A DNA stretch of 64,000 nucleotides from the NCBI GenBank assembly GCA_030390025.1, contig CM059431.1, positions 142,106,001 to 142,170,000 on the forward strand, written 5' to 3'. How positions within the stretch are numbered: the first letter of the stretch is position 1; each line of letters opens with the position of its first letter. The notes below the pieces were generated by a model. The model did not search any database and was not told the DNA's origin. It saw nothing but the letters and a program-made list of their open reading frames with translations. Shown here piece after piece: positions 24,530 to 62,900 of the stretch. This DNA is from Squalus acanthias (lineage: Eukaryota). A program made the translations under genes and the position numbers.

Positions 24530-26645
24530 ATGAGAAGTCGCACAAAACCAGGTAATAGTCCAACAGATTTATTTAAAATTACGAGCTTTCGGAGCAGTTG
24601 CCCCTTTGTCAGGTAAAGGTACAGTGAGGGAATCTACAGTATTACACAGTATATAAACACAGAAAGCAATTTGTCTGCAGAGATACAATCTTTCTGGGAG
24701 GCATTACATCAAAGACACACCAGAGCACAGCCAAGACAATGAGATGGCTCACAGGGGGTCCAACGTGTCAAATCCTGCCATCTGCAGTTGAGCTTTTAAC
24801 CTTTTTTTTTGGTTTTCTTTATTTTGTGTTTTTTTTTAAAACTGGAAAGACAGACAACGATGTCGAGTCACCGTCTGTAGCGTGACATGAACCCGAGATC
24901 CCTATTGAGGCCGTCCTCATAGGGGCGGAACATGGCTATCAGTTTCTGCTCGATGATTTTGCGTTGTCGTGTGTCTCGAAGGCCGCCTTGGAGAACGCTA
25001 ACCCGCAGATCCGAGGGTGAATTTCCTTGACTGCTGAAGTGTTCCCCGACTGGGAGGTAACAATCCTGCCTGGCGATTGTTGTGCGGTATCAGTTCATAC
25101 GTTGTCTCAGTGTCTGTATGGTCTCGCCGATATACCATGCTCTGGGGCATCCTTTCCTACAACGTATCAGGTAGACAACGTTGGCCGAGTCACATGAGTA
25201 TGTACCATGTACCTGGTGGGTAGTGTTCTCACGTGTGATGATGGTATCTGTGTTGATTATCTGGCATGTCTTGCAGAGGTTGCCGTGGCAGGGTTGTGTG
25301 GTGTCGTGTTCGCTGTTCTCCTGACAGCTGGGTAATTTGCTGCGAACGATGGTACTTTTGAGGTTAGGTGGCTGCTTGAAGGCGAGTAGTGGAGGCGTGG
25401 GGATGGCCTTAGCAAGGTGTTCGTCGTCATCGATGACATGTTGAAGGCTGTGAAGAACATGGCGTAGTTTCTCCGCTCCGGGGAAGTACTGGACGACGTA
25501 TGGTACTCTGTTGGTTGTGTCCCGTGTTCGCCTTCTGAGGAGGTCTATGCGGTTTTTCGCTGTGGCCCGTCGGAACTGTCGATCGACGAGTCGAGCGTCA
25601 TATCCCATTCTTACGAGGGCGTCTTTCAGTGTCCGTAGGTGTCCATCGCGTTCCTCCTCGTCTTAGCAGATCCTGTGTATTCGCAGGGCTTGTCCATAGG
25701 GGATTGCTTCTGTAACGTGGTTAGGGTGGAAGCTGGAGAAGTGGAGCATCGTGAGGTTGTCTGTGGGCTTGCGGTAGAGTGAAGTGCTGAGGTGTCCGTG
25801 TTTGATGGAGATTCGTGTGTCCAAGAATGAAACCGATTCTGAGGAGTAGTCCATGGTGAGTTTGATGGTGGGATCGAACCTGTTGATGTTATTGTGTAGT
25901 CCTTTCAGTGATCCTTCGCTGTGGGTCCAAAGGAAGAAGATGTCATCGATGTATCTGGTGTACAGCGTTGGTTGGACGTCCTGTGCAGCGAAGAAGTCAT
26001 GCGCGAACTTGTGCATGAAGATGTTGGCGTATTGGGGTGCGAATTTGGTCCCCATGGCTGTTCCGTGTGTTTGGGTAAAAAACTGGTTGTCGAAGTTGAA
26101 GACATTGTGGTCAAGGATGAAGCGAATGAGTTGTAGGATGGCGTCTGGAGATTGGCTGTTGTTGGTGTTGAGTACTGAGGCTGTCGCAGTGATGCCGTCA
26201 TCGTGGGGGATATTGGTGTAGATTGCCGATACGTCCATCGTGGCGAGGAGTGTTCCTGGTTCAACTTTTCCATGGGTGCTGAGTTTCTGCAAGATGTCTG
26301 TAGTGTCGTGACAGAAGCTGGGGGTTCCCTGTACGATGGTTTTCAGGATGCCCTCGACGTACCCAGAGAGGTTCTCACACAGGGTTCCGTTGCCTGATAC
26401 GATAGGACGTCCGGGTGTGTTGGCTTTGTGTATCTTTGGGAGGCAGTAAAAGTCTTCTACGCGGGGAGTACGTGGGATGAGAGCGCGTAGGAGGCTTTGA
26501 AGGTCTGGATCGAAGGTCTTGATCAAACTATTGAGTTGACGGGTGTGTTCTTTGGTCGGATCTGTGGGTAACTGTCTGTAGTCTTCCTGGTTGCCCAGTT
26601 GTCGGTATGCTTCTTTGCAATAGTCCATTCTGTTCTGTATGACGG
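24530..26645 (-). mobile_element. Penelope-like retroelement family B, 5'-truncated, with in-frame stops
   Basis: FYCLPKIHK..GRPIVS, TMDVSAIYTNIP, QTHGTAMGT, RYIDDIF; CHGNLCKTC linker; VVYLIRC..WYIGET; hammerhead-like motif in the 3' end (about 24578-24616). Confidence 0.92.
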
Positions 26646-26867
26646 TTTGCTTCTAGTTTCTTTTTCTCCTTCATCGATAGGGTAGTTTTGGTGCTGAAAA
26701 ATGCAGGAAGAAAATCAGCACAGCCCAGGATACCATGTGTGGATGAGCAGTTTCCTCGTGTCCTCAGTCACAATTTAGCATTATTTTACATCTGGCAAAC
26801 TGCACCTGCAGAAATCTTCCTCCATGGTTAAATACCTACCCCTCCACTGATAATAGTCTCCTTCAAA

Positions 26868-30320: not shown

Positions 30321-33300
30321 TTACTGCTCCTTTTCTATGACACGGCGAATAAAGGCAATCATACCGTTTGAATTCTTAACCACCTTATCTACCTGGCCTG
30401 CTACCTTCAGGGATCTGTGTACATGCACTCCAAGTTCCCTTTGTTTCACTACATTACTCAGTGTCCTACCATTTAATGCGTATTCCCTTTCCTTGTTAGC
30501 CCTCCCCAAATGCATAACCTCACACTTCACCGGATTGAATTCCATTTGCCACTGTTCAGCCCACCTGACCAATTTATTGTTATCTTCCTGCAGTCTACAG
30601 CTTCCTTCTTCAGTATCAACCACATAGCCGATTTTAGTTTCATCTGCAAGCTTCTTAATCATATCCCTATATTCAAGTCTAGATCATTGATATATACCAC
30701 AAAAAGCAAGGGACCTAGTACTGAGCCCTGTGGAACCCCACTAGAAATTGCCTTCCAGTCACAATAAAAACATCAACCATTATCCTCTGCTTCCTGCCTC
30801 CGAGACAGTTTTGAATCCAACTTGACATTTCCCACTGGATCCCATGGGGTTTTAACTTCGTGACCAGTCTGCCATGTGGAACCTTATCAAAAGCCTTGCA
30901 AAATCCATATATACTATACCAAATGCACTACCCTCATCTACCCTCCTTGTTACTTCCTCAAAAATGTCAATCAAATTTGTCAGACACGACCTTCCCTTAA
31001 CAAATCCGTGCTGACTATCCTTGATTAATCCGTGTCTTTCTAAATGATGATTTATCCTTCCCTTCAGAATTTCTTCCAATAATTTTCCCACCACCGAGAC
31101 TAGGCTGACTGGCCTGTAATTACTCGGGATATCCCTTTCTCCCTTTTTAAGCAAAGGTACCACATTAGCAGTCCTCCGGCATCTCACCTGAAGCCAGGGG
31201 GGATTGGAAAATGATGGTCAGCGCCTCTGCTATTTCCTCTTTTGATTCGCTTAACAGCCTGGGATACATTTCATCCGGGCCTGGGGATTTATCCATTTTT
31301 AAAGCTGCAAAACCCCTTAATACTTCCTCTCTCAATATGTTTATTTCATCTATTATTTCGCACTCCTCCCCCCTAATAGCAATGTCTGCTTCGCCCCTCT
31401 CCTTTGTGAAAACAGGCGCAAAGTATTCATTAAGAACTCTACCGACGTCTTCCACCTCCACACACAGATTATCCTAATTATCTCTAATAGGCCCTAACCT
31501 TTCTTTAGTTATCCTCTTAATGTTAATATATTTATAAAAAATCTTTTGGTTTCCCTTGATTTTACTTGCCAAGAATTTTGCATGCTCTATCTTTGCTTTC
31601 CTAATATCGTTTTTAATTGTACCCTGCACTTTCTGTACTCTAAAGATTCTGGAGTATTTAGCACTCGGTATTTGTCATATGCCTCCCTTTTTTTCTTTAT
31701 CCTACCCTGTATGTCCCTAGACATCCAGGGGGCTCTAGATTTGTTAGCCCCACTTTTTTTCTTTAAGGGCACATGTTTGGTCTGAACCCTCCGGATCTCC
31801 TCCTTGAATGCCTCCCACTGCTCCGACACTGATTCACCTTCATGTAGCTGTTTCCAGTCCACTATGGCTAAATCCTCTCTGAGCTTAGCAAAATTTGCAT
31901 TTCCCCAATTGGGAATTTTTATTGCTGGTCTATACTTGTCATTTTCCATAACTACCTTAAATCAAACTGACATATGGTCACTAGCACCAAAATGCATTGA
32001 TACACTTTCTAACTGTCCAGCTTTATTCCCTAAAACTAAGTCCAGACACGTCCCCTCCCTTGTTGGGCTAGCTACATACTGGCTAAACAAGTTCTCCTGG
32101 AAGCATTTTAGGAATTCCACAACCTCTATACACTTCTCACTAATTTTATCCCAGTTAATACTGGGGTAGTTGAAATCCCCTACCATTACAGCCCTATAGT
32201 TGTTGCACTTCTCAGAAATGTGTCTACATATTTGTTCTCCTATCTCCCTCTCATTGTTTGGGGGTCTGTAGTACACTCCCAGCTGTATGATGGCCCATTT
32301 TTTTGTTTTTCAATTCGACCCATATGGCCTCGTTTGATGATCCCGCCAACATATCATCGCTTCTCACAGCTGTAATAGTTTATTTAAACAATAGCGCTAC
32401 TGCCCATCCCTATTTAACTCCCCCTCTATTAAGTGTGAAAATCCTGTAACCAGGAATGTTGATCTGCCATACCTGTCCCCCTTTCAGCCACGTCTCTGTA
32501 ATAGCTATAATACCATAGTCCCAATTATCTACCTGTGCCCTCAGCTCATCTGCCTTGTTCGCTATACTCCTTGCATTGAAGTATATACCATTTAGTACAG
32601 GCAAACCTCCTTGTTGACTACTGTCTAGTCCTTGATTCCTCTGTCCTTCCAATTTACTTTCTACGTTTTTGTTTTCCGATTCCAGTTTTTCTTCCCTTCC
32701 GATTCTATTCTTATGTTCCCATCCCCCTGCCAAGCTAGATTAAGCCCTCCCCAACAGCACTAGCAAACCCTACCGCGAGGATATTGGTCCCGTTCCCGTT
32801 GAGCTGCAGCCCTTCTGGCTTGTAGAGATCCCACCACCCCCAGAAACTGTTCCAATTCCTCAGGAATCTAAAGCACTCCCTCCTACACCATCTCTCCAGC
32901 CACGCATTCATCTGCTCTATATTCCTCTTTCTGTACTTACTAGCACGTGGCACTGGTAGTAATCCGGAGATTAATACATTTGAGGTCCTGTTTTTTAACC
33001 TCTATCCAGCTCCCTAAACTTTGCCTGCAGAATCTCAACCCTCTTCCTACCTATGTCGTCGGTACCGTAATGGAGCACGACCTCTGGCTGTTCACCCTCC
33101 CCCCTCAGAATGCCCTGCAGCCGTTAAGTGACATCCTTGACCCTGGAACCAGGGAGGCAACATACCATCCTTGGATCGCGTCTGTGTCCGCAGAAACGGC
33201 TGTTTGCTCCCCTATCTATTGAATCCCCTATCACTATTGCTCTCCCTCTCCTCTTCGCCCCCCTCCCCTCGTGCAGCTGAGCCTTTCTTGGTGCTGTGGA

Positions 33301-33965
33301 CTGGCTCTGGCTGCACTCTCTAGAGAAACCATAGCCCTCACCATCACCAGCTCCGAATACTGGTTGTTGAGCAAGATGGGCTCAGGGGACTCCTGCACTA
33401 CCTACCATGTCCTCCTCTTCTGTCTGACAGTCAACCATTCCTTCTCTGCCTGCACACTCTTAAGCTGTGGGGTGACCACCTCTCTCACGTAGCTCTCAGC
33501 CTCGCGGATGCACAACAGTGACTGCAGCCGCTGCTCATGCTCCGTAACCCGGTGCTCGAGCTGCTGTAGCTGGCGACACTTCCCGCACATGTGGTCGTCC
33601 AGACCACGGGAGGTATCCAGGACTTCCCACATGGCACAGGATGGTAATTCCACGGGTGTGAGCTGCCCTGTCATACCTCTAATTAACAGACTATTTACTA
33701 ACCTAGCTGGAATAAATTTAAAAGCTTTGAGAAAGCCAAGTATAAATACTTACCAGATACTCACTTTTGAATTCTGACATCACTCTATGAAAATTTTGCC
33801 GGTGCTGAGTTGGTGCCGCCGCTGACGCCTCGCCGTTCCTCCCAGGTCCGCACTGCCGCCGCTGCTGCTGCGGCTGTGGGGCCTACCTGTGGCTCGGGCT
33901 TACTTTATACCACCGCTGCCGCCTCGCCGCTCCTCCCAGGTCCACACTGCAGCCGCTGCTGCTGC
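30321..33965 (-). mobile_element. CR1 LINE with 5' UTR, ORF1 (zinc finger plus SGNH esterase) and ORF2 (APE-RT); 3' end missing; disrupted
   Basis: ORF1 pieces SCAMWEV..HMCGKC and MNAWLERWCRRECFRF..GLQLNGNGT; ORF2 YFNARSI, IAITETWL, KSPGPD, NYRPVSL, LADETK; GC-rich short repeats at the 5' end. Confidence 0.88.
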
Positions 33966-34291
33966 ATAAGTTATACACCAGTGTATAACTTCCTCCAGTC
34001 CAAATCATCTGTAATGATTTTATAATCGTGTGTAAGAATTAAATGTAGACATCTGTTATCATCAATTTTATGCAATGGTAACCTGAATTATATATGATAT
34101 GTAATCCTTTTGCTTATAATTAAAACTCTGTGATTTAGCTGTAACCTGACAGCCTGGGTGAGAAAGAGGATTGCTATAGCCGAATAGGGAGGCTGTGGGT
34201 GAAAGATGGATATTAGCCACAGTAAGGATGAGACATAGAGAGCAGCTAGCCTGGGAAGCAAGGTAAAGGTTTAGCTGCCACTGTGTTGGGA

Positions 34292-37200
34292 TATAAGAAC
34301 ATAAGAACATAAGAAATAGGAGCAGGAGTAGGCCAATCGGCCCCTCGAGCCCGCTCCTCCAATCAATAAGATCATGGCTGATCTGATCCTAACCGCCAAT
34401 CTACTATAACAGAACCATCTCCTGAACCTAACAGAATTGGACACACAAAATAGGAGCAGGATCAGGCTACACGGCCCCTGAGCACGCTACGCTACCCATA
34501 GGGCCATGACCGATCCGAACCTAGACTCATGTCCAAATTCCTGCCCGCTCCCCGTAACACTTAATTCCCTTTATTTCCAGGAAACTGTCTATTTCTTTTT
34601 AAATTTATGTAATGATGTAGCTTCTACAGCTTTTTGGGGCAGCATATTCCATGGACCTACCACCCTCTGAGTGAAGTAGTTCCTCCTCATCTCAGTTTTT
34701 AAAGAGCAGCCCCTTATTCTAAGACTATGCCCCCTAGTTCTAGTTTCACCCATCATCGGGAACATCCTCCCCGCATCAACCCGATCCAACCCCTTCACAA
34801 TCTTATATGTTTCAATAAGATCGCCTCTCATTCTTCTGAACTCCAATGAGTAGAGTCCCAATCTACCCAACCTCTCCTCATATGTCCATCCCCTCATCCC
34901 CGGGATTAACCGAGTGAACCTTCTTTGTACTGACTCGAGAGCAAGTATGTCTTTTCTTAAGTACAGACACCAAAACTGTATGCAGTATTCCAGGTGCGGT
35001 CTCACCAATACCTTGTACAACTGAAGCAATACCTCCCTATTTTTATATTCTATCCCCCTAGCAATGAAAGCCAACATTCCATTGGCCTTCTTAATCACTT
35101 GCTGCACCTGCATACTAACCTTTTGAGTTTCGTGCACCAGGACCCCCAGATCCCTTTGTACTTCAGTACTTTCCAGTTTCTTGCCATTAAGATAATAACT
35201 TGCTCTACTATTTTTCCTGCCAAAGTGCATAACCTCACACTTTCCAGTATTGTATTCCATCTGCCAAATCTCTGCCCACTTACTTAGCCTATCTATGTCC
35301 CCTTGCAGCTTTTTTATGTCCTCCTCAATCACTACTTTCCCTCCCATCTTAGTATCATCTGAAAACTTTGATATGTTACACTCGGTCCCCTCCTCCAAAT
35401 CGTTAATATAGATTGTAAAGAGTTGAGGACCCAGCACTGACCCCTGCGGAACACCACTAGTTACCGATTGCCAGTTTGAGAATGAACCATTTATCCCAAC
35501 TCTCTGCCGTCTGTTAGATAGCCAATCCTCTATCCATGCCAGAATATTACCCCCAATCCCATGATTTTTTATCTTAAGCAATAATCTTTTGTGTGGCACC
35601 TTGTCAAATGCCTTTTGGAAGTCTAAATACACCACATCCACTGGTTCCCCTTTATCCACCCTGTATGTTACTTCCTCAAAGAACTCCAGCAAATTTGTCA
35701 AACATGACTTCCCCTTCATAAAACCATGCTGACTTTGTCCTATTTAATTATGATTATCCAAATTTTCCGTTATTGTCTCCTTAATAATGGACTCCAAAAT
35801 TTTACCTACCACAGATATTAGGCTAACTGGTCTACAGTTTCCAGCCTTCTGTCTACTGCCCTTTGTAAATAAGGGTGTTACATTAGCAGTTTTCCAGTCT
35901 GCCGGGATCTTTGCTGAGTCCAGGGAGTTTTGGAAAATTATTACCAATGCATCCACAATCCCTACCGCCACTTCTCTCAAGACCCTAGGATGTAAGCCAT
36001 CAGGTCCAGGTGATTTATCCGCCTTGAGTCCCATTATTTTACAGAGTACCACTTCCTTAGTGATTTTGATCGTGTTTAGCACCTCCCCCCCCTTTAGCCC
36101 CCTGTTGGTCCAGTGTTGGGATATTCTTAGTGTCGTCTACTGTAAAAACTGATACAAAATATTAATTCAGTGTATTTGCCATCTCCATATTTCCCACCAT
36201 TAATTTCCCGGTCTCATCCTCTATGGGACCAACATTTACTTTAGCCACCCTTTTACTTTTTATATAACTATAAAAACTCTTACTATCTGTTTTTATATTT
36301 TTTGCTAATTTACTTTCATAATCTATCTTCCCTTTCTTAATCAATATTTTTGTTATTTTTTGCTGTCTTTTAAAGTTTTCCCAATCCTCTATCCTCCCAC
36401 TAGATTTGGCTACCTTATATGTCCTTGTTTTTAGTCCAATACTATCCTTAATTTCTTTACTTAGCCATGGATGACTGTCGTTTCTTTTACACCCTTTTCT
36501 TCTCAGTGGTATATATATTTTTTTGGAAGTAGTAAAATAACTCCTTAAATGTACACCACTGATCATGTATCGTCTTACCCTTTAATCTATTTTCCCAATC
36601 CACTCTACTCAATGCTGCTCGCATACCATCATAGTCTCCTTTATTCAAGCTTAGCACGCTTGTTTGAGATCCAACCTTCTCACCCTCTAATTGAATATAT
36701 GGAATTAAACCATGTTATGGTCACTCATTCCAAGGGGATCCTTTACTAGGACATTTTTAATTAATCCTGTCTCGTTACACAGGACCAGATCTAAGGTTGC
36801 TTGCCCCCTGGTCGGTTCAGTTACATACTGCTCAAGAAACCCATCCCTAATACACTCAATGAACTCATCCTCAAGGCAGCCCTGCCCAAATTGATTTGTC
36901 CAATGAATATGATAGTTAAAATCCCCCATAATTGAAGATGTTTCCTTATTACAAGCCTCAACTATTTCCTGATTGATACTCCGTCCAACAGAGTTGCAAT
37001 TGTTCGGAGGCCTATAGACTACGCCCACTAGTGTTTTTTCCCCTTTTTATTCCTTATCTCCACCCAAACTGTTTCATTATCCTGATCTTTCGACACAATA
37101 TCATTTATCTGTATTACAGTGATTCCTTCCCTTATTAACATAGCCACCCCACCTCCCCTTCCTTCCTGCCTGTCCTTCCTGATCGTTAAATAACCTGGTA

Positions 37201-37810
37201 TGTTTAATTCCCAGGCATTGTAACCCTGCAGCCATGTTTCTGTAATGGCCACAAGATCATACCCATATGTAGTTATTTGTGCCATTAACTCGTCTATTTT
37301 GTTACGAATGCTACGTGCATTCAGATAGAGAACTTTCAGATATGTTTTGTGACACTTAGTTCCTGCTTTTGCCCTTTTTATTACTTTACCTTTTACTCCA
37401 TACCTTCTGCCCCTTCCTGACACACTCTGGTTTTAAATTTCCCCACTGCTACCTAAGTCTATGACCTTCTCTGTTGTCATTTTTATTATTTGCTCTCTAA
37501 GAACCTCCCCCACCACTAGTTAGTTTAAGGCCCTCTCTGCAGCCCTATTTATATGATCCGCCAGGACTCTAGTCCCAGCACTGGCCAAGTGAAGCCCGTC
37601 CCAACGGAACATCTCCCTCCTGCCCCAGTACTGGTGCCAGTGTCCCAGGAAGCAAAACCCATTTCTCCCACACCAGTCTTTGAGCCACTCATTTAACTCT
37701 CTAATTTTATTTGTCCTATCCAAATTCGCTCGTGGCTCAGGTAATAATCCAGAGATTAATACCCTTGAGTTTCTGTTTTTTTTAATTTGACCCCTAGCTG
37801 CTCATACTCT
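34292..37810 (-). mobile_element. Young CR1 LINE (end of ORF1, whole ORF2 with few lesions, 3' UTR and (TTCTTATG)n tail)
   Basis: ORFs 34589..35719 (RT, 376 aa), 35744..37423 (APE and tether), 37520..37723 (esterase DGLHL). Confidence 0.93.
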
Positions 37811-43305: not shown

Positions 43306-44400
43306 AATAACGTAAGAAATAGGAGCAGGAGTAGGCCATTCGGTCCTTCGAGCCTGCTCCGCCATTCAATGAGATCATGGCTGATCTTCTGCCTCACTCC
43401 ATTCACCGGCCCTATCGCCATATCCCTTGATGCCCATACTAGTCAGAAATCTATCGACTTCTGTTTTGAATATACCCAATGACTGAGCCTCCACAGCGCT
43501 CTGGGGTAGAGAATTCCAAAGATTCACCACCCTCTGTGTAAGGAAATGTCTTCTCATCTCAGTCCTGAATGGCCTACCCTTTATCCTGAGGCTGTAGGCC
43601 CTGGATCTAGACTCCACAGCCAAGGGAAACATTCTCCCAGAATCCACCCTATCAAGCCCTGTAATAATTTTGCTTGCTTCAATGAGAACCCCTCTCATTC
43701 TTCTGAATTCAAGAGAATAAAGGCCTAATTTACTCAATCTCTTCTCATACAACACTCCCACCATCCCAGGAATCAATCTCGTGAACCTTCGTTGCACTCC
43801 CTCTAAGGCAAGTATATCCTTCCTTAAGGTAAGGAGATCAAAATTGTACACAGTACTCCAGTTGTGGTCTCACCAAGGCCTGTATAATTGGAGTAAGACT
43901 TCTTTACTACTGTTCTCACATCCTCTTGTAATGAAGGCCAGCATACCATTTGCCTTCCTGATGGCTTGCTGCACCTGCACTTTCACTTTCCGTGACTCAT
44001 GTACAAGGACACCCAGGTTCCTTTGAGCATCTGCATTCCCCAATCTTTCACCATTTAGGAAATACTCTGCCTTTCTGTTTTTTCTACCAAAGTGGATAAT
44101 TTCACATTTATCCACATTATATTCCATCTGCCATGTTCTCGCCCACTCATTGAGCCGTTGGAGATCCTCTTGAAGTCTCTTCACATCCTCTTCACAACTG
44201 ACACTGTCACCTAGCTTTGTATCATCAGCAAATTTGTAAATGTTACATTTAGTCCCCTCATCCAAATCATCGATATACATCTCTGCGGTACCCCACTTGT
44301 CACAGCCTGCCATCCTGAAAAAGACCCGTTTATCTCTACTCTTTTTTTTCTGTCTGTTAACCAATTCTCAATCCATGCAAGTATATTATATCCAATTCCA
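43306..44400 (-). mobile_element. CR1 LINE 3' fragment
   Basis: KFADDTKLG, RKDILALEGVQRRFTRLIPG; the tail continues at 42522-42540. Confidence 0.88.
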
Positions 44401-47160
44401 TTTCTCATAACTTTTTAAAATACCAGGGTTACAGTTATAATTTTCCAACCTAAAGTAATAATTACTGAATCGCGATTGCTTTGGAAGATTATGGCCAACA
44501 CACCTGCAATTTACTCACCTATTCATTTAAAGCTCTGGCTGGGAAGCTTCAGATCCTGAGGACTTCTTAGACTTTAGTGCCGTTATTTTTACTAATATTG
44601 TTTTCTTGCTTATGTTAACTTTAGTGAGTTCCAGTCCTTGATTCACTATTAGTTTCGCTGTAATGTTAGGCACATTATCCGCTTCCCCTACTGTGAAGAC
44701 AGACACACATTAATAATTCAACAATCTGCTTATTTCTTATTTGCATTCGCAATATTACCCAGATACAATTCTAAATGAAACTCATTACCCTTGACTATGT
44801 ATTTTTCTTCTAATATAATTGTAAAAACGTTTCGTGTTAATCTTGATAACCCGCACAAGTTTCTTTTTGTACTCCTTATTGCAGCTCTTACTATCTCTTT
44901 TTATCTTCCTTTGTTGTTGTAGAATCATAATGGCACAGAAGGAGGCCGATCGAGTCCGTGCCGGCTCTCTGTATAGCAATCCAGTCAGTACCATTCCCCA
45001 GCTCCACACCCAGAGAGAGCCCTGCAGGTTTGTTTCCCTCAAATGCCTATCCAGTCTCCTTTTGAAAACAATGAGTTTCTCCGCTTCCACCACTTCCGTC
45101 GGCAGCGAGTTCCAGGTCATCACCACTCGCTGCGTAAAAAAGTTTTTCCTCACATCCCTCCTGTATCTCTTGCACAAAAACTTAATTCAGTGTCCCCTCG
45201 TCCTTTTTCCATCAACTAGTGGGAAAAGCCTTTCCCCGTCCAGCCTATCCAAACCCGTCATAACCTTGTACAACTCTATCAAATCACCCCGCAAACGCCT
45301 TTGCTCCAATGAAAACAAATGCAGCTTCTCCAACCTGTCCTTATAGCTAAGATCCCCATCCCAGGAACCATTCTGGTAAATCTCCTGTGCACCCTCTCAA
45401 GTGCCTTCACGTCCTTCCGAAAGTGTGGTGACCAGAACTGCACGCAATACTCGAGTTGTGGCCTAACCAGCACTTCATAAAGGTTCAGCATAACTAGTCT
45501 TCTTTTGAACTCAATACCTCTATTTATGAAGCCCAAGATCCCATATGCCTTCCAAACCACTCTCTCATTATGTCTCTCCACCTTCAGCGACATATGCACA
45601 TTAATTCCCCTGTACCTCGCTCCCTGCACTCTCTTTAAAACTGTGCCATTAAGTGTATATTGCCTCTCCCTGTTCCTTCTGCCAAAATGCATCACCTCAC
45701 ACTTCTCTGTATTAAATTCCATCTGCCACTTGTCTGCCCATTCTGCTAGCCTTTCTCTGTCCTGTTGCAGTCGATTGGTATCATCATCACTGTTTGCCAC
45801 ACGCCCAAGTTTGGTGTCATCGGCAAATTTAGAAATTCTACTCTGAATTCCAATATCCAGGTAGAATTTATATTTATATAAAAAAAACAGTGGCTCCAGC
45901 ATTGACCCTTGGGGAACAACACTGTCTAACATTCTCCAGTCTGAAAAACAGCCATTTACCACAACTCGCTGTTTTATGTCATTAAGCCAATTCCCTATCC
46001 AAGCTGCTACTGACCCATCTATTCCACGAGCCTCAATTTTGTGAACCAGCCTTCCATTTGGTACTTTGTCAAACGCCTTCCGAAAATCCATGTAGACAAC
46101 ATCCATTGCATTCCCTTCATCAATCCTCTCTGTTAATTCATCAAAACATTCACTTAGATTAGTGAAACACGATCTGCCTTTTACACATTCATGTTTGCTC
46201 TCTTAATTAGCTTAAACCTCTCCAAGTGCCCGTTAATTTTTTCCTGGATTATTAGTTCTAAAACTTTGCCCACCGGTGAAGTTAAACTGACAGGTCTGTA
46301 GTTACTAGGATTGTCCTTACATCCTTTCTTGAACAATGGTATCACTTTTGCCACTTTCCAATCATCAGGCACCTCCCCCTCTGGATCTACACTATTCTTT
46401 GCAAGGTTTCACTCTATTACCTATAATTTTATTTATCTCTCAACTCTATGTCGACCATTTCCGTTTTAATTGGTATGTAAAGCTCTTGCCCTTTAGGGGT
46501 ATACACTGGTCTTGTATTAAGCTAAATTATTTTCTGAACACCTCCCACTTTTCATCTGTAGTCTTACTCGATAACAATTTTAACCAAATTGCTGTCGTCA
46601 GTATCTGTTTCTTCCCGTTCATGTTACCAAAATGGAGATTCTTAAAATTGTGTTGCGTTTCTCCTTTAAAACCGAGCATTGCATTCGATCATATTGTGCT
46701 TACTGTTAGATGATAGTTCTCTTACTGTTATATTATTAACCAAGACTGGATCATTGTTCATTACTAAATGTATTAAATCTTGTTGGTTCTTCAACATATT
46801 GTTCCAGAAAACTATCTTGAATGTAATCAATATATTCACTACTTTTCCGACTTGAGCAACTCTGCTCTTCCCATATTAGCTGAAAATTAAAGTCTCGAAT
46901 TAACACAACCCTGCTTTTGCTGCAATCCGCTCTAATCTCTGAAGTTACACATGCAGTATCTTCATTGCTGCTATCGGGAAGCCTGTAGACAACTCCCGTT
47001 AAAATTTTAAGTACTTGCTTATTCCTAAATTCCCAACACAGAATCCCAGCGGATTACTTTACCTTAACTATATCCTCTCTCACTAATGCTGTAATATACC
47101 TTTAATCATTGAGGCTGTCACTCCTCCTCTTACAGTTTCCCGATCCGTTCTACAGAACAC
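44400..47160 (-). mobile_element. Very old CR1 relic interrupted by a younger CR1 3' fragment (about 44920..46380)
   Basis: RT ORF 45279..46106 (DFRKAFDKV, KFADDTKL) with a 3' UTR ending near 44920; degraded APE/tether sequence on both sides. Confidence 0.75.
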
Positions 47161-48795
47161 TATAACTGGAGAAAAAGTACTAGGCAAACTAATGGGACTA
47201 ACGATGAACAAGTCTCCTGTACCTGATGGCCAGCATCCTAGGGTCTTAAAATATTTGGCTGCAGAGATAGTGGATGCATTGTTTGTAATCCACCAAAATT
47301 CCCTGGACTCTGGAGAGGTCCCAACGTATTGGAAAACCGCAAATGTAAAGCCACTATTCAGGAAAGAAGGGAGACAGAAAGCAGGAAACTATAGACCAGT
47401 TAGCCTATCATCTGTCAGTGGGAATATGCTGGAGTCCATTATTAAGATATTAGCAGCAGGACATTTTGAAAATCATAATACAATCAAACAGATTCAGCAG
47501 GGTTTTATGAACGCGAAATCATGTTTGACAAACTTGCTAGAGTTTTTTGAGGATGTAACGAGCAGTGTGGTTAAAGGGGAACCAGCAGATGTGTAGTATT
47601 TGGATTTCCAGAAGGCATTCGATAAGGTGCCACATAAAAGGTTACTGCCCAAGTTAAGAGCTCACGGGGTTGGGGGTAATATATTACCATAGTTAGAGGA
47701 TTGGCTAACTAACAGGCAACAGAAAAGCCAGGAAAAATGGGGAATTTTTAGTTTGGCAAACTGTAACTAGTAGGGTGCCACAGGGATCCAGTGCTGGGGC
47801 CTCAACTATTTACAATCTATATTAATGACTTGGATGAAGGGACCGAGTGTAATGCAGCCACATTTGCTGATGATACTAAGATAGGTGGGAAAGCAAGCTG
47901 TGTGGAGGACACAAAGAATCTGCAAGGGGATACAGATCGGTTAAGTGAGTGGGCAAACATTTAGCAGAAGGAGTATAATGTGAGAAAATGTGAGGTTATC
48001 CACTTTGGTAGGAAAATAAAAAATACAAATTATTATTAAAAGGGAGAGAGACTACAAAATGCTGCGGTAAAGAGGGATCTGGGGCTCTTTGTACATGAAA
48101 CACAAAAAGTTAGCATGCAGTTACAACAATTCATTGGAATGGAATGTTGGCCTTTATTGCAAGGGGATGGTGTATAAAAGTAGGTAAGTCTTGCTACAGC
48201 TGTACAGGGCGTTGGTGAGACCACACCTGGAGTACTGCGTACAGTTTTGGTCTCCTTATTTAAGGAAGGATATGCTTGCATTGGAGGCAGTTCATAGAAG
48301 GTTAACTAGATTGATTCCTGAGATGAGGGGGGTGTCTTATGAAGAAAGGTTGAGCAGGTTTGGCCTATACTCATTGGAGTTCAGAAGAATGAGAGGTGGT
48401 CTTATTGAAACATGTAAGATTCTGAGGGGACTTGACAGTTTTGATACAGAGAGGATGTTTCCCCTCATGGGGGAATCTAGAACTAGGCGGCCTAGTTTCA
48501 AAATAAGGGCTTGCCCATTTCAAACGGAGACGAGGAGAAATGTATTCCCTCGGAAGGTCTTGAATCTTTGTAATTCTCTACCCCAGAGTGCTGTGGAGGC
48601 TGTGTCATTGAATATATTTAAGTTGGAGACAGACATATTTTTGAACTATAGGGAGTCAACGGTTATGGGGAGCGGGCAGGAAAGTGGAGTTGAGGTCTAG
48701 TTCAGATAAACCATGATCTTATTGAATGGCAGAGCAGGCTCGAGGGGCCAAATGGCCTACTCCTGCTCCTATTTCTTATATTCTTATGTTCTTAT
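47160..48795 (+). mobile_element. CR1 LINE 3' fragment with (TTCTTATG)n tail
   Basis: KSPVPDG, NYRPVSL, RPHLEYCVQFWSP. Confidence 0.88.
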
Positions 48796-49996: not shown

Positions 49997-52900
49997 GGCC
50001 CAGATATTACGATCCCTACGGGTGTGTACAGGCTGTGTACCCACCGACAGGGACATCGGAAATGCCTGTTTCATGCATGCACAGCGCATGCGCTGAATAG
50101 CGGCATTTCCGATCTGACAAGAATGCTCTTGACAGATCCTCCGTCTGCCCTGGAGAAGGGACTCTGCGGGCGGATAGTTCCGCGTGTTTGTGATCTTCCT
50201 ACCGCAGAAAACCTTTACAATTCTTTCGCCTGGTAAAAGCACCTGAACCGGAATGGGACCAACAACCTTGTGGGGCGGGTTGCTAGTGCTGTTGGGGGCA
50301 GAGGGGGAAAACTAACTTAGCAGGGGGATGGGATACGGAGTGGAGCTATAGTAGGTGGTGATGCACAGCCAAATATAGAGGAAAAAACAAGTCAGTCTGG
50401 AAGGCAGAGCAAATATGTAACGGCACAAGGGAGTATGGCAAGGCTGGATGGCATTTATTTTAATACATGGAGTCTTGCGAGTAAGGCAGATGAATTGAAT
50501 GTGTTGATGAACACTTGGAAGTATGATATTGTTGCTATCACAGAGACAAGGTTGAAGGAGGGGCAGGACTGGCAGATCAATATTCCGGGGTATAGAATCT
50601 TCAGGCGAGACAGAGGGGTTTGTAAAAGAGGAGGGGTTGTCGCAATTTTGATCATGAAGGCAATTACTGCTGTAAGGAGGGATGATATCTTAGCAGGTTC
50701 CTCTAATGAGGCCATATGTGTAGTACTTACAAACAAAAAGGGGGCAAGCACTTTGCTGGGAGTGAACTATAGGCCCACAAACAGTCAGGGGGAGACAGAG
50801 GATCAGATATGTAGGCAAATCTCAGAGAAGTGGAGAAATAATTGGGTAATAATAGTAGGGGATTTCAACTTCCCCAATATTAACTGGGATAGTCAGAGTT
50901 TGAAAGGCTTAGAGGTGCAGAATTATTAAAGTGCAGCCAGGAGAGATTTTTGAGCCAGCATGTAGAAAGTCCTCCAAGAGAGTGGGCGGAACTGGACCTA
51001 ATTCTAGGGAATGTAGCTGGGCAAGTGGCAGAAGTGTCAGTAGGAGAGTTTAGGTGACTGTGACCATAATTCGGTGAGATTTAAGGTAATCATGGAAAGG
51101 GACAAAGATGATACGGAAATAAAGGTTCTAAATTGGGAGAAGGCCGATTTTAATCTGATAAGGCAGGATCTGGCCAAAGTGGACAGGGATCAGCTACTTG
51201 TAGTAAAATCCTCATCAGAGCAGTGGGAGGCATTCAGAAACGAAATAGAGAGAGTACAGCGCCAACATGTTCCCGTAAAGGTCAAGGGTGGGACCAACAA
51301 ATCCAGGGAACCCTGGTTGTCAAGGGATATACAACAATGGATTAGGAAAAAAAGGGAGGCTTTTGGCACATACAAAGGACTAAAAACAGTGGAAGCCCTA
51401 GAGGAGTATAGAAAGTGCAGGGGGTATTTAAAAAAGAATTTAGGAGAGCGAAGAGGGGGCATGAAAAACCACTGGCGGGCAAAATAAAGGAAAATCCCAA
51501 GTTGTTTTATAAGTATATTAAGGCAAGAGGATATCCAGGGAAAGAGTAGGGCCAATTAGGGACCAAAGTGGCAATCTCTGTGTAGAGCCGGAAGATGTAG
51601 GTGAGGTTTTAAATGAATATTTTGCATCTATGTTCAATATGGAGAAGGATGATGTAGGCATAGAAATCAGGCAGAGGGATTGTGATATACTTGAACAAAT
51701 TAGCATTGAGAGGGAGTAGGTACTCGCGGTGTTAGACGATTTTAAAGTGGTTAAATCCCCAGGCTCAGACGAGATGTATCCCAGGCTGCTGTGGGAGGCA
51801 AGGGATGAGATTAAACGGCCTCGGACACAAATTTTCAGAATCTCTCTGGCCACAGGGGAGGTGCAAGAGGACTGGAGGACATCTAACGTAGTACCATTAT
51901 TCAAGAAGGGTAGTAGGGATAAACCAGGGAATTACAGGCCAGTCAGCCTAACATCAGTGGTAGGGAAATTATTTGAAAAAAGTCTGAGGGACAGAATTAG
52001 TCTCCACTTGGAGAGGCAAGGATTAATCAAGGATAGTCAGCATGGCTTTGTCAGGGGGAGATCCTGTCGAACCAATTTGATTCAATTTTTTGAGGAGCTG
52101 ACTAGGTGTGTGAATGAGAGTAGTGCAGTTGATGTAGTCTACATGGACTTCAGTAAGGCTTCTGACATAGTCCCGCATGGGAGACTGGTCAAGAAGGTAA
52201 GAGCCCATGGGTTCCATGGCAATTTGACACATTGGATCGAAAATTTGCTTAGTGGCAGGAGGCAGAGAGTGATGGTCGAAGGTTGTTTTTGTTACTGGCA
52301 GCCTGTGTCCAGTGTTATACCGCAGGGATCGGTGCTGTGGCCATTGCTGCTTATAGTGTGCATTAATGATTTAGATTTGAATGTAGGAGGTATGATCAGT
52401 AAGTTCGCAGATGACACGAAAATTAGTGGAGTGGTAAATAACGAGGAGGGAAGCCTCAGGCTACATGACGATATAGACGGGTTGGTCAGATGGGCAGATC
52501 AGTGGCAAATGGAGTTTAACCCTGAAAAGTGTGAGGTGATGCATTTTAGGATGACTAATAAGGCAAGGGAATACACAATGAATGGTAGGACTCTAGGAAG
52601 GACAAAGGATCAGAGCGACCTTGGTGTGCATGTATATAGATTCCTGGAGGCAGCAGGACAGGTAGATAAGGTGGTCAGAAAGGCATATGGGATATTGCCT
52701 TCATTAGCCGAAGCATAGAATATAAGAGCAGGGAGGTTATGATGAAGCTGTACAAAACACTAGTTAGGCCACAGCTGGAATACTGTGTGCAGTTCTGGTC
52801 GCCACACTATAGAAGGATGTGATTGAATTGGAGAGGGTGCAGAGGAGATTCCCCAGGATGTTAGCTGGGCTGGAGCGTTTCAGCTATGAAGAGAGACTGG

Positions 52901-53432: not shown

Positions 53433-53590
53433 TGGGCCAGAAATTCGGCTCTTGTCGTGTGAGTACGCGCTGTGTACTCACCCGTAAGGCCACCTGAAGT
53501 GCCGGTTTCAGCCATGCACTGCGCATGCGCGGGAAACCGGAACTTCCGTTCCCCTGAAGGAAGGAATTCAGAGGTGGAACACGTGCGCAG
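53433..53590 (-). mobile_element. Truncated MITE end (family of 57896..58641) abutting the satellite
   Basis: GGGCCAGAAATTCGGCTC TIR followed by the AAGTGCCGGTTTC..TGCGCATGCGC..GAAACCGG hairpin. Confidence 0.75.
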
Positions 53591-53593
53591 GTT

Positions 53594-54380
53594 CACCACC
53601 AGTAATGTTAGATTAGGTTCACCCCAATAATGAAGCAGTAGGATCACTACCAGCAATGGTAGCCTAGATTCATGGCATGTACTGTGAGTGTAGGATCAAC
53701 TTCAGTAGTGTTAGCGTAGGGTCATCACCTGTAAGGTTATCTAGGATCAACAACATGAATGTCAGCTTCGTGTCATCAGCAGTAATGATAGAGTAGGGTC
53801 ACCACCAGTAATGGTAATGCAGAGTCACCACCAGTAATGTTAGAGTAGGGTCACCACCAGTAATGTTAGAGTAGAGTCACCAGCAGTAATGTTAGAGTAG
53901 GTTCACCACCAGTAGTGTTAGAGTGGGGTCACCACCAGTAATGGTAATGCAGAGTCACCACCAGTAATGTTAAAGTAGGGCCACCACCAGTAATGTTAGA
54001 GTAGCGTCACAGAATCACAGGATCACAGAATCACAGAATCCCCACAGTGCAGATAGAGGCCATTTCGGCCCATCGAGCCTGCACCGACACATATCCCACC
54101 CTATCCCCATAACCCCACGTATTTAATCCCCCCTAACACTAAGGGTCAATTTATCATAGCCAAATCAACCAAACCCACACAGCTTTGGACTGTGGGAGGA
54201 AACCGGAGCACCCGGAGGAAACCCACGCAGACACGGTGAGAATGTGCAAACTCCACACAGACAGTCACCAGGGGCCGGATTCGAACCCTGGCTCTGTGAG
54301 GCAACAGTGCTAACCACTATGCCACCGTGTCACCATCAGTAATTTAAGATTAGAATCATCGTCAGTCATGTTAAGCCGAT
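53594..54380. repeat. 26-bp satellite, short array upstream of copy 3, interrupted by a SINE
   Basis: Same consensus as 5980..14470. Confidence 0.9.
54011..54328 (-). mobile_element. tRNA-derived SINE, HE1/V-SINE type, with a CR1-derived tail
   Basis: Minus strand A box TGGCATAGTGG and B box GGTTCGAATCC; V-domain-like GTGTGGAGTTTGCACATTCTC..GTGGGTTTCCTCCGGGTGCTCCGGTTTCCTCCCACA; (ATTCTGTG)n tail; flanking GTCAC repeat. Confidence 0.88.
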
Positions 54381-54714: not shown

Positions 54715-54720
54715 TATAAA
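54715..54720 (+). promoter_or_regulatory. TATA box of GPCR copy 3
   Basis: CCTATAAAGGG about 80 nt upstream of the ATG, positionally conserved with copy 2. Confidence 0.65.
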
Positions 54721-54799: not shown

Positions 54800-54869
54800 A
54801 TGGCACGGCCAGCAATTCTACAGATAAGGGACATTTACTATCATTTTCTCGGAGCCTTTGGCGTTCCCG
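54800..54869 (+). CDS. GPR139/GPR142-like GPCR, copy 3, coding exon 1 (MARPAILQIRDIYYHFLGAFGVP + 1 nt)
   Basis: ATG 80 nt after TATAAA. The 70-nt exon ends at CCCG|GTAAGT, with the same length and phase as exon 1 of copy 2. Too short for the ORF track. Confidence 0.88.
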
Positions 54870-55619
54870 GTAAGTCAATGTATCCTGTTGCCTAATAGCT
54901 GTTGACTAACTGAGTGTTAATGCAACATCTTCTGAGAATGTCCTTATTGCAGATTCATTCATCCACCGGGATCAGTCGCTGAATATCAGCGAGAATCCTT
55001 CCAGACCGCGCGGGCGCTGTTCTGGTGGGCAGATCCTTTGTACCGGACGCTCAACATTCCTCCCTATACTGAGGGAGGGCGAGGCTAATTCCCCGGCCTC
55101 TCCAACCGTGCATAGATCACTAAAGAACGTGTTGCTCAGTGTCTATAATATTCACCTCATTTGTGCCGTTGTTCCCTGTCTATATTAATGAGATAATTCC
55201 TCAGACTGCAGTCACCTCCACCCAACAGGGGACTTTGAAAGATATTTTGAGAAATAATTTCCACTGAAGAAGATGCTCCACTCCCCTCGGCGGAATTTGG
55301 ACATAGATTGAACGTTTCTGTCTCAGCTGAATGTTTCATTTGAATTATATCTTTCCATTAATTGCCGTGAAATAATATTTAATATTTGACAAAGACTTAG
55401 TGACGTATGCTGCAAGGATGAACGTTTTTCAGTCCCTCTATATTGAATGTCCAATGAATAATTTATGTTAAACAAAATACATTAACCCTCGCCTATATTC
55501 ATGATAACATTCAGTGTCTATGACCCTAAGTAGGGACACATCTGAACATTTCCCCACAATATGCTGTGAGATTTAACTGAGTGACCCTGTTACTGACCTC
55601 TTGTCCCTATTTCTCACAG

Positions 55620-56512
55620 CGAACCTACTGACAATCGTGATTCTCTCCAGAGGAAACTGCGGCCTTTCCAAATGTATCTCTGTCTACATGGTGGCCATGG
55701 CAACAGCAGATCTCCTGGTCATGATCATCAATATATTAGTGAATCGCATTTTACGTTATCACTTTCCACATACATTCCTGTCCTACACTGTCGTTTGTAA
55801 GATCATTATATACCTGCAATGTGTCGCCCTGTATTTGTCGGTGTGGTTTACAGTCTCGTTCACATTTGACCGATTTGTAGCTATATGTTGTGAGAAGTTT
55901 AAAACCAAGTATTGCACAGTGAGAACTGCGGCCGCGGTTATAACAACGGTCTCTGTCCTGATCTGTTTACAGAGCCTCCTCTTTTGGTTTGCATTTCAAC
56001 CTGAGCGAATAATTAACAATGTTCACTGGGGTTGCCGACCCAGAGTGGAGTTTTCTTCATCGCCTGTAGGTGTGGCGTTTTCCTGGTTACGTAGCATTTG
56101 TTTTTCTTGGCTTAGTTATGTTTTGATATTACTGTTTAATTGTTTGACAGCCAGACGTATTTTAGTGGCCAGTAGAGCCCGCAGGGGACTCCGGGGTCAC
56201 AGCAGTGAGAATCAGAGCGATCCAGAGATAGGGAACCGAAGGAAATCCATTGTTTTACTTTTCAGTGTATCGGCCAGTTTTATACTGTTGTGGCTGACAA
56301 CTACCGTTACTTATTTAACTACCGGACCGACAAACACCGCGCATTACCGAGGCGATTATGCAGCCCCTGCCTATATTGCCGCTGAAACCGGATATATGCT
56401 CATGTATTTGAGCTCCTGTACAAACACGTGTATTTATGCAGCTACACAAACTAAATTCAGGGAAGAGCTGAAGCAGGTGATGAAAATTCCTTGGACATTT
56501 ATTTGCAAATAA
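55620..56512 (+). CDS. GPR139/GPR142-like GPCR, copy 3, coding exon 2; spliced product 320 aa, intact 7TM
   Basis: Acceptor tatttctcacAG at 55618-55619. Uninterrupted ORF with TM1 GVPANLL, TM2 AMATADLL, TM3 C...FDRF, ECL2 WGC, TM6 FILLWL, TM7 SSCTNTCIY, H8 KFREEL. Motifs resemble GPR139 (GLPANIL, LALAAADIL, SVWITV..DR), recalled from memory; orthology not established. Confidence 0.9.
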
Positions 56513-60429: not shown

Positions 60430-62900
60430 ATTGAACAGTTGTTGTGTTCTCCTAGCATTCCTGTGCCCTCTATTTGTTATTAAACGGTTAATATTTTTCC
60501 ATGGCCCTACTTCTAAATAAATGGTTTATGTTCCCCCTGGTCCCCATTTATAATTAAACAGTTACAGCATTCCCCATAATTCTCCTGTCCTCTATTTCTA
60601 ATTAAAATGTAAACATGTTCCCCTTACTTCCCCTGTCCTCTATCTCTAATTACACAGTTAATGTGTTCCCCTAAATTACACGGTCTTCTATATCTAATTA
60701 CAGTTACTGTGTTCCCCTAAATTACCCTGCCCTCTATCTCAAATTACACAGTTACTGTGATCCCCAAAATTAACCTGTCCTCTGTCACTAAATACACAGT
60801 TACTGTGTTCCCCTAAATTACCCTGTCCTCTATCTCAAATTACACAGTTACTGTGATCCCCTAAATTACCCTGTCCTCTATCTCAAATTACACAGTTACT
60901 GTGATCCCCTAAATTACCCTGTCCTCTGTCACTAATTACAGTTACTGTGTTCCCCTAAATTACCCTGCCCTCTATCTCTAATTACACAGTTACTGTGTTC
61001 CCCTAAATTACCCTGTCCTCTATCTCTAATTACACAGTTACTGTGTTCCCCTAAATTACCCTGTCCTCTATCTCTAATTACACAGTTACAGTGTTCCACT
61101 AAATTACCCTGTCCTCTATCTCTAATTACACAATTACAGTGTACTCCTAAATTACCCTGCCCTCTATCTCTAAATACACAGTTACTGTGTTTCCCTAAAT
61201 TACCCTGTCCTCTATCTCTAATTAAACAGTTACTGTGTACCCCTAAATTACCCTGTCCTCTATCTCTAATTACACAGTTACTGTGTTCCCCTAAATTATC
61301 CTGTCCTCTATCTCTAATTACACAGTTACTGTGTTCCCCTAAATTACCCTGTCCTCTATCTCTAATGACACAGTTACTGTGTTCCCCTAAATTACCCTGT
61401 CCTCTATCTCTAATTACACAATTTCTATATTCCCCTAAATGACTCTGTCCTCGATCTCTAAATACACAGTTACTATGTTCCCCTGAATTACCCTGTCCTC
61501 TATCACTAATTAAACAGTTACTGTGTTCTCCTGAAGTACCCTGTCCTCTATCTCTAATTACACAGTTACTGTGCTCCCCTAAATTACCCTGCCCTCTATC
61601 TCTAATTACACAGTTACTGTGCCCCCCTAAATTACCCTGTCCTCTATCTCTAATTACACAGTTACTGTGTTCCCCTAAATTGCCCTGTCCTCTATCTCTA
61701 ATTACACAGTTACTGTGTTCCCCTAAATTTCCCTGTCCTCTGTCACTAATTACACAGTTACTATGTTTCACTAAATTACCCTGTCGTCTATCTCTAATTA
61801 CAAAAATGAGAAGTCGCTAACACCAGGTTATAGTCCAACAGTGTTATTTAAAATTACGAGCTTTCGGAGCACCGCTCCTTCTTCAGGTACAGGTACAGTC
61901 CGCATAATGATCTAATTACAAAGTTACTGTGTTCCCCTAAATTACCCTGTCCTCTATCTCTAATGACACAGTTACTGTGTTCCCCTGAATTACCCTGTCC
62001 TCAATCACTATTTACACAGTTACTGTGTTCCCCTGAATTATCCTGTCCTCTATCTCTAATTACACAGTTACTGTGTTCCCCTAAATTATCCTGTCCTCTA
62101 TCTCTACTTACAGTTACTGTGTTCCCCTAAATTACCCTGTCCTCTGTCTCTAATTACACAGTTACTGTGTTCCACTAAATTACCCTGTCCTCTATCTCTA
62201 ATTACAAAGTTACTGTGTTCCCCTAAATTGCACTGTCCTCTATCTCTAATTACACAATTACTGTGTACCCCTAAATTACCCTGTCCTCTATCTCTAATTA
62301 CACTGTTACTTTGTTCCCCAAAATACCCTGTCCTCTATCTCTAATTACAAAATTACTGTGTACCCCTAAATTACCCGGTCCTCTATCTCTAATTACACAG
62401 TTACTTTGTTCCCCAAAATACCCTGTCCTCTATCTCTAATTACACAATTACTGTGTTCCCCTAAATTACCCTGTCCTCGATCTCTAATTACACAGTTACT
62501 GTATTCCCCAAAATTACCCTATCCTCTATCTCTAATTACACAGTTACTGTGCTCCCCTAAATTGCCCTGTTCTCTATCTCTAGTTACACAGTTTCTGTGC
62601 TCTCCTGAATTACTCTGCCCTCTATCTCTAATTACACTGTTAGCGTGTGTCCCTAAATTACCCTGTCCTCTATCTCTAATTACACAGTTACTGTGTTCCC
62701 CTAAATTACCCTGTCCTCTATCTCTAATTACACAATTACTGTGTGCCCCTATAGATCCCGTTATTCTACTGATAAGTACACAATTGTTGTGTTCCCTAAA
62801 GTCTCCTTTTTCGTTTTTTAACTAAAGAGTTGCTGCCTTCCCCTAAATTTACCTGTCCTGTAATTAATTATACACTTACTGTATTCCCATGAATTCCTCT
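60430..62900. repeat. 48-bp minisatellite, about 50 units (CACAGTTACTGTGTTCCCCTAAATTACCCTGTCCTCTATCTCTAATTA)
   Basis: Period 48, matching the 16-aa periodicity of the ORFs that run through it. Confidence 0.95.
61805..61910 (-). mobile_element. 106-bp Penelope family B terminal fragment with a hammerhead motif, inside the minisatellite
   Basis: Minus strand UAC-CUGAAGA-A-GGAGC-GGU-GCUCC-GAAA-GC-UC-GUA; 12-bp TSD TCTAATTACAAA (61793-61804 and 61911-61922). Confidence 0.85.

Follow-up and report, generated by a model that had tools for sequence, protein, structure and literature searches.

The receptor families OR, TAAR, V1R/ORA, FPR and MRGPR share a common organisation, in that their genes lie in tandem clusters, turn over by birth and death, include many pseudogenes and encode proteins with a short N-terminus, and also in that each joins a variable pocket to a conserved inner half and old clades to lineage-specific blooms. 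Among receptors of solved structure, the one that best matches the genes described here by sequence is GPR139 (PDB 7VUG and 9M42; E 4.5e-7 with a single sequence and 8e-18 with a profile). In the accessible part of PMC8807744, an arginine at position 6.51 is described as exclusive to GPR139 and GPR142 and as required for activity, and the acidic residues D2.61, E3.29 and E3.32 of GPR139 are described as facing the amine of the amino-acid ligand. In the catshark, the accessible part of PMC11979771 reports small repertoires of 2 OR and 32 V2R genes, and the term “GPR” is absent from the main text of that paper. Sharks have been described with small chemoreceptor repertoires, yet the GPR139-like family that we analyse here counts hundreds of copies.

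The window, that is, the whole stretch of 64,000 nucleotides of Squalus acanthias DNA that was analysed, holds three copies of these genes, of which copies 2 and 3 are members of two subfamilies of a large elasmobranch family of GPR139-like GPCRs. The family is like GPR139 in keeping W6.48 and in having its diagnostic residues on ligand contacts of GPR139 (PMC8807744, accessible part), and it is unlike GPR139 in its identity of ~21% to 7VUG and in its hundreds of copies against one. Arg at 6.51 was found in 0/88 genes of its own genome (29 have Ala, 28 Thr, 28 Ser, 2 Val and 1 Asn), and the acidic triad is absent, with N/Y at 2.61, hydrophobic residues at 3.29 and Q/N/C/S at 3.32. Because both R6.51 and the acidic triad are lacking, we treat the family as similar to GPR139 and do not file it under that name. 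In Foldseek, GPR139 did not stand out, ranking 36th among near-equal class A matches.

An earlier note on this DNA had taken two blocks in the extracellular halves of TM2 and TM3, where copies 2 and 3 differ at nearly every residue, as the product of diversifying selection on the ligand pocket. The reading that we prefer, with a probability of about 0.68, is that these blocks mark two subfamilies that likely pre-date the main shark lineages, are likely held by purifying selection and are predicted to have different ligands.

Gene copies in the window and their family

All three copies lie on the + strand, and copy 3 is the only intact one in the window, copies 1 and 2 (2/3) being broken, a point missing from the earlier note. 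Upstream alignment of copies 2 and 3 points to a putative TATA-like box for copy 3 at 54715..54720, which precedes exon 1 (54800..54869; 23 codons plus 1 base), encoding a very short N-terminus and the first half of TM1, with a GT donor directly 3' of it, then an intron of 750 nt (54870..55619), and finally exon 2 (55620..56512), an intact 7TM body of subfamily A, as indicated by 7tm_1 and the AlphaFold model. As to the junction of exons 1 and 2, the 750 nt, with GT..AG ends, are absent from one contig in RNA-like data of another species. In the two RNA-like runs of another species, contigs of family members lie mostly over exons and one of them, from a relative and not from copy 3 itself, is spliced; in the expression search, no RNA dataset on record was listed as carrying a match. 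The C-terminus of copy 3 is ~4-12 residues shorter than in most relatives, and many subfamily A genes end likewise; its early end (56505..56512) is due to an 8-bp deletion near the stop. Within exon 2, the TM2 top block (55721..55756; positions 2.54-2.65) carries the type-A signature N2.61-R2.62, the TM3 top block (55802..55837; positions 3.27-3.38) carries the type-A signature Q3.32-C3.33-V3.34 with Y3.37, and the TM4 top (55970..55978; 4.56-4.58) holds a third type-diagnostic patch, QSL, which is ENI in types B and C and has no mention in the earlier note. The TM5 top (56072..56122) varies within and between subfamilies, and there the synonymous divergence is raised too.

Copy 2 consists of exon 1 (14893..14962) and exon 2 (15787..16681), a subfamily B pseudogene in which a 10-bp deletion in TM6, near 16467, shifts the frame, which ends at 16475. 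This deletion is no assembly slip, because it is common to the 97.4% identical paralog L168. The stretch of copy 2 that covers TM2 top, ECL1 and TM3 top (15888..16004) carries the type-B signature, Y2.61-Q2.62 and N3.32-P3.33-A-T-L-D3.37. Copy 1 is present as the 3' part of exon 2 (1..670), a pseudogene of a third pocket type with WFHSAW in TM5, and its defects are an in-frame TGA at 404..406 and a 1-bp deletion near 487, besides the in-frame loss of 13 codons over TM2 top and ECL1 just upstream of the window. The WFHSAW-type TM5 motif recurs in proteins of Heptranchias, Pristiophorus and Heterodontus.

Exon 1 of copy 2 and that of copy 3 are each preceded, at a distance of ~0.5-0.8 kb, by a 26-bp tandem array, at 53589..54010 upstream of copy 3 and at 5959..8566, 10587..10901 and 13945..14413 upstream of copy 2, where it appears to be one ~130-unit array split by two Penelope-like insertions of opposite orientation. 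Penelope-like fragments, recognised by a weak GIY-YIG match and an RT match, lie at 8995..10611 (-), 10896..13543 (+) and 25090..26652 (-), the first of them retaining a 538-aa open frame, and decayed LINE copies, which we take to be of the CR1 type, lie between copies 2 and 3 at 30321..37432, 43375..48700 and 50321..52718, with RVT_1 matches for two of them. A 48-bp tandem array at 60551..62751 (26 + 18 units, 88-89% matches) gives rise to long repetitive open reading frames on both strands, and a decayed copy of this array is found downstream of copy 2 at 18729..19094.

These two-exon class A GPCRs form a large tandem family with birth-and-death turnover. Copy 3 scores 74.1 bits with 7tm_1 against a curated cut-off of 30.5 (E 1.7e-20), this being its sole Pfam match, and its AlphaFold model (mean pLDDT 80.2) has seven helices plus H8, with Foldseek TM values of ~0.7 to class A receptors. 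The class A core residues D30, W224, N268 and Y272 are each kept in 88/88 genes, R84 in 86/88 and C59 in 82/88; we take these positions to be the motifs D2.50, C3.25, DRx, W6.48, N7.49 and Y7.53. A 17-base family motif has 346 exact matches in the 3.7-Gb genome, compared with 0 for the control, so that 346 copies is a lower bound. A protein search of the same genome scored 132 of 5047 candidates; 130 of the 132 were retrieved, 117 of these were kept because their exon 2 was open, full-length and preceded by an AG acceptor, and 13 were dropped, which left 88 distinct genes in a set biased toward relatives of copy 3. Further copies were taken from 60 of the 69 additional motif matches among the first 100 listed, and 28 of these 60 were open, bringing the set to 115 distinct genes, with the remaining 32/60 broken. 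The search for protein homologs gave 2025 matches at E 1e-20; the 120 that were listed, 100 of which were aligned, all come from sharks or rays and are mostly named “probable GPR139”. The ESM Atlas gave only clusters that bear this name, besides generic 7tm_1 ones, and we found no description of the family in the literature on GPR139-like or orphan receptors of sharks, subscription papers lying beyond the scope of this search; PMC12294341 contained nothing of relevance.

The divergent blocks and their recurrence in other sharks

At the TM2 top, copy 2 (15888..15923) encodes IVLHVIAYQTFS and copy 3 (55721..55756) encodes MIINILVNRILR, with 14 base differences and 12/12 residues changed. The counts given in the earlier note proved exact, namely 12/12 changed residues at the TM2 top, 10/12 at the TM3 top and flanking blocks that are identical at 32/33 and 42/44 positions. 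Its description of the divergence as “almost purely amino-acid-changing” is right in that the changes are mostly replacements and slightly overstated in that path averaging gives about one synonymous step at the TM2 top, three at the TM3 top and 6.5 at the TM5 top, where the local dS is 1.3. Over the whole gene, 77/286 codons are changed between copies 2 and 3, and a run of at least 12 changed codons was obtained in 3e-5 of 100,000 random placements; the 12-codon run is therefore not chance clustering. When 14 random substitutions were placed in the TM2 block, which was chosen post hoc, all 12 residues were changed in ~3e-4 of the trials and one synonymous step or fewer was found in ~2% of them. 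Pairwise dN between the two copies amounts to 0.71 and 0.74 in the two blocks, with a gene-wide dS of 0.251 that agrees with the intron distance of 0.257.

Subfamily A, which includes copy 3, has 38 genes, and subfamily B, which includes copy 2, has 9. At ten of the 12 differing TM2 positions, the two copies show the majority residues of A and B, the other two differences (V35 and A40) being private to the copy 2 lineage. Residues N41, I43, Q66, Y71, Q117, S118 and L119 are each present in 38/38 genes of subfamily A, C67 in 37/38 and R42 in 36/38, and Q42, T43, N66, P67, A68, E117, N118 and I119 are each present in 9/9 genes of subfamily B, so that the TM4 top reads QSL in 38/38 A genes vs. 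ENI in 9/9 B genes; D3.37 is found in 3/9 B genes of this genome. Within A, replacement changes number 5 and synonymous ones 14 at nine core codons chosen post hoc, vs. 199 and 134 over 153 inner codons. Two type-B genes of this genome, L063 and L072, have a TM2 block that starts as in A or C (M-I-F-N-I) and ends as in B, and these are possibly chimeras or intermediates.

The comparison with other species was made on protein sequences, in the 100 aligned homologs out of 120 listed and 2025 matched. The sawshark Pristiophorus has a protein (P0003) that is identical to copy 3 at 12/12 positions of the TM2 block and 9/12 of the TM3 block (78% overall), the horn shark Heterodontus, which is placed among galeomorphs, has another (P0004) identical at 9/12 and 6/12, respectively (74% overall), and the type-A TM3 signature residues are also present in both. 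The type-B TM3 block, as found in the closest intact relative of copy 2 (L075, 96.6% identical), recurs in Heptranchias, the sevengill (P0013/P0021, 10/12), in Heterodontus (P0036, 8/12) and in Scyliorhinus, the catshark (P0044), and Stegostoma (P0057), both 9/12. Three same-species quartets, each made of own A, own B, foreign A and foreign B, gave 14.9-17.6 for grouping by type vs. 0.6-2.0 for grouping by species at extracellular-half sites, and 4.3-6.4 vs. 0 at the TM2 top; inner-half sites gave nearly no signal (1.1-2.2 vs. 0.2-1.4), and for this reason the type grouping rests on the outer half. A type A clade including P0002, P0003 and P0004 has an SH-aLRT of 97-99, and mixed-species clades were obtained for types A, B, C and G/H in quick trees supported by SH-aLRT only. 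AU tests, with groups named after the tree had been seen, rejected a single clade of own A plus B genes (p 0.00016) and also a single clade of two horn shark genes (p 0.003).

Both types are found in the sawshark as well as in the horn shark, so the A/B split predates the divergence of these two sharks, and because the blocks recur in other sharks, they are old preserved pocket types and not an ongoing divergence of two copies. Diversifying selection between the two copies, as had been proposed for these blocks, is thus not what we found; they are fixed subfamily signatures across shark orders. The accessible part of bioRxiv 10.64898/2026.02.13.705779 gives a node of 256 Ma (HPD 212-312) and a Jurassic interordinal radiation, and from these two we infer that the pocket types split ~200-260 My ago. 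This age implies a rate of ~5e-10 per site per year, in keeping with the slow evolution of sharks, for which the accessible part of PMC10587355 gives a rate of 7e-10 per generation.

The GPR139 contacts given in the accessible part of PMC8807744 were mapped through a sequence alignment to the GPR139 structure, and the orientation of side chains was read from generic numbering and this alignment, not from model coordinates. In TM2, residues N37, N41 and R42 correspond to GPR139 I80 (2x57), D84 (2x61) and F85 (2x62), and in TM3, residues I63, Q66, C67 and L70 correspond to E105 (3x29), E108 (3x32), F109 (3x33) and I112 (3x36), with the diagnostic residues aligning with 2.61, 2.62, 3.32 and 3.33, all ligand-contacting in GPR139 according to the same part of that source. 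The placement of the blocks in the pocket is therefore upheld for these seven residues, while the rest of the two blocks probably points toward lipid or adjacent helices. Type A combines Arg2.62 with non-acidic residues at 3.37 and 4.56, and the type of copy 2, together with its foreign relatives, has Asp3.37 and Glu4.56; therefore, different ligand classes are predicted for the two types. Judging by the charge of these residues, neutral or anionic ligands would suit type A better, and cationic ones type B.

Selection, gene conversion and rival explanations

The codon models were run with custom scripts (MG94-type, F3x4, branch lengths fixed from the nucleotide tree), not with PAML or HyPhy. 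The pocket was defined as a set of 37 sites, which was taken from class A numbering and fixed ahead of the region tests. With region-specific synonymous rates, dN/dS is 0.83-0.85 in the pocket, not distinguishable from 1, 0.57-0.64 at other outer sites and 0.37-0.41 in the inner half, and the entropy in the 100 foreign proteins is 1.68 in the pocket vs. 0.85 in the inner half. The inner half is thus the more constrained one, as the earlier note had it, and a conserved inner half is ordinary among class A receptors; constraint is loose overall, however, because many copies are broken (the 32/60 given above) and the inner-half dN/dS itself is high. A family-wide dN/dS above 1 at the block codons was not observed, the values being 0.88-0.96 at the TM2 top and 1.0-1.13 at the TM3 top, neither of them different from 1.

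According to the view of the earlier note, recurrent diversifying selection keeps altering the pocket family-wide and the blocks are its product, an explanation that we consider unlikely, though less so than the other rivals. The comparison of M7 with M8 does give an LRT of 71.5, and that of M8a with M8 an LRT of 28.7, with dN/dS of ~2 at 10% of sites and flagged sites enriched in the pocket (7/17, p 0.002) and lying in the outer half in 15/17 cases; within the TM2 block, 1/12 codons (I36) has a posterior >0.9 for dN/dS>1. These tests are confounded, however, by synonymous rates, which vary strongly across sites (~66-100 log units gained): synonymous variation alone gave uncorrected LRTs of 77-245 in 16/16 nulls, above the observed 51, and these nulls are probably harsher than the data, as their LRTs overshoot the observed value. 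An inflating effect of synonymous rate variation on tests for positive selection is described in the accessible part of PMC7403620. A parametric model with synonymous rate variation showed no gain (negative LRTs from grid sticking).

A corrected grid test on 88 genes, which allows for synonymous rate variation, speaks more in favour of such selection, with an LRT of 9.1 and dN/dS of 1.3-1.7 at ~18% of sites, which exceeds all 38 nulls (29/29 plain ones, maximum 5.2, and 9/9 with discordant trees, maximum 3.5) and stays at 7.9-13.5 under multi-hit changes, removal of CpG-rich codons or segment trees. Against this, the LRT is 6.8 with 115 genes, a value reached by 2/20 nulls, and it is 1.4 for the pocket only, 3.3 for subfamily A alone and 0.0 for the added subfamily; the power of the corrected test is low, since 2/9 simulations under the fitted alternative reached 9.1. 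The evidence from the blocks and from the deep branches is likewise divided: block dN is 2.8x the intron distance, the branch that splits A from the rest has 17 replacement and 3 synonymous changes, and 13 deep branches jointly give an LRT of 10.4. Against this, allowing double hits lowers the deep-branch LRT to 4.2, the branch-site test for the split between the subfamilies does not reach significance (LRT 1.3, p 0.13), the comparison of N and S changes local to the blocks gives p 0.105, and the signature residues are conserved across orders. Recurrent candidate sites are 3.32-3.35, 5.39, 6.51, H50 and V142, besides the non-pocket G189 and V286, and weak positive selection at some pocket-side sites is possible, at the borderline and elsewhere than the earlier note placed it. 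CpG hypermutability was tried as a driver of the test and rejected, the rate ratio being 1.17 and the test little altered on 262 codons. As an observation apart, CpG transitions are not raised at four-fold sites (the same ratio of 1.17), contrary to what one would expect of a vertebrate gene.

Drift under relaxed constraint in the outer half, combined with gene conversion that resets the inner half and with no selection for difference, is less likely still. It would fit the pocket dN/dS being indistinguishable from 1, and also the synonymous pattern, in which the A-B four-fold distance is 0.143 in the inner half vs. 0.259 in the outer half and 0.267 in the intron. Where two subfamilies share a residue, its codons differ 1.55-2.18x more often in the outer than in the inner half (A-B, A-C and B-C, with intervals that exclude 1; for A-D and C-D the intervals include 1). 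The p values of a PHI-like test are 0.003 in A, 0.32 in B, 0.08 in C and 0.92 overall. Partial homogenisation of the inner half by gene conversion probably sharpens the contrast between the two halves. Drift, however, would not keep 12/12 and 9/12 block identity with proteins that are 78% and 74% identical overall, nor would it give the excess of synonymous (14) over replacement (5) changes at the core codons, and conversion, which probably adds to the similarity of the inner half, leaves the blocks unexplained. The pattern does not come wholly from gene conversion, which cannot explain the conservation of the blocks across orders. In exon 2, codons 152, 184, 210 and 264 encode near-invariant residues and have synonymous rates ~5-8x the mean, possibly a mark of recurrent conversion.

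Independent evolution of the same pocket residues in several shark lineages would take advantage of an inner half almost free of signal, which leaves the type grouping hanging on the outer half, and yet it is very improbable, since ~15-18 sites agree on the grouping in two separate foreign species and for at least 4 types, and half of these sites do not belong to the pocket set. Decay of the frameshifted copy 2, in which V35 and A40 are each shared with only 1/9 intact B genes, is refuted as the origin of the block, given that its other ten residues are the B majority state and that its intact paralog L075 has an identical 12-residue TM2 block.

Under the preferred reading of two old subfamilies, an early duplication would have remodelled the TM2-TM3-TM4 pocket floor into distinct types, plausibly with an old burst of positive selection at the remodelling. 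Each type would then have duplicated and lost copies, with core residues kept by purifying selection and looser tuning at TM5, ECL2 and TM6 within types, while the inner half would have stayed common and, in part, probably been homogenised by gene conversion.

Comparison with known receptor repertoires

The closest relatives outside cartilaginous fishes that we can name are low-copy GPR139-like orphans of salamanders, coelacanth, caecilian and teleosts (P0206, P0211, P0219, P0245 and P0262), which are the best family-profile matches named as non-chondrichthyan among 10 looked up, with E 1.6e-58 for the salamander, whose orphan has an ICL3/TM6 stretch similar to that of the shark family. These orphans differ from the shark family in their identity of ~30% and in having Arg at 6.51 in the coelacanth and fish and Lys in salamanders. 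They are possibly the “GPR210” subtypes of PMC6504862. The salamander proteins P0206 and P0270 are the best non-chondrichthyan matches among those named, both with Lys at 6.51, and the salamander proteins could possibly be a low-copy sister of the shark family.

The shark family is like the chemosensory and immune repertoires in being large and clustered, with many pseudogenes and with variation concentrated at the pocket, and it is not homologous to OR, TAAR, V1R/ORA, FPR or MRGPR at the family level, given that Pfam gives 7tm_1 only. With the organisation of the family as the only guide to a role in sensory or immune surveillance, the most likely one would be that of a chemical-sensing repertoire in epithelium or immune cells. 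Tentatively, and with clearly less confidence than for the two old subfamilies, these hundreds of GPR139-related genes may form an undescribed fifth chemosensory repertoire of sharks, with ligand classes older than the modern orders, a class code in TM2, TM3 and TM4 (Arg for anions in type A, Asp/Glu for cations in type B) and, inside each class, a weak selection that still acts on TM5, ECL2 and TM6.

If few classes are kept across orders, the orphan set shrinks to a handful of types that can be tested for ligands and tissue with one intact gene each, for instance in the catshark as a laboratory species. We also suggest keeping in mind that, in families such as this one, a pairwise block made entirely of replacements together with a significant M8 is not evidence of ongoing positive selection. 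The overall pattern is familiar from the chemosensory and immune GPCR repertoires, and what is new here is the ancient type structure shared across shark orders.
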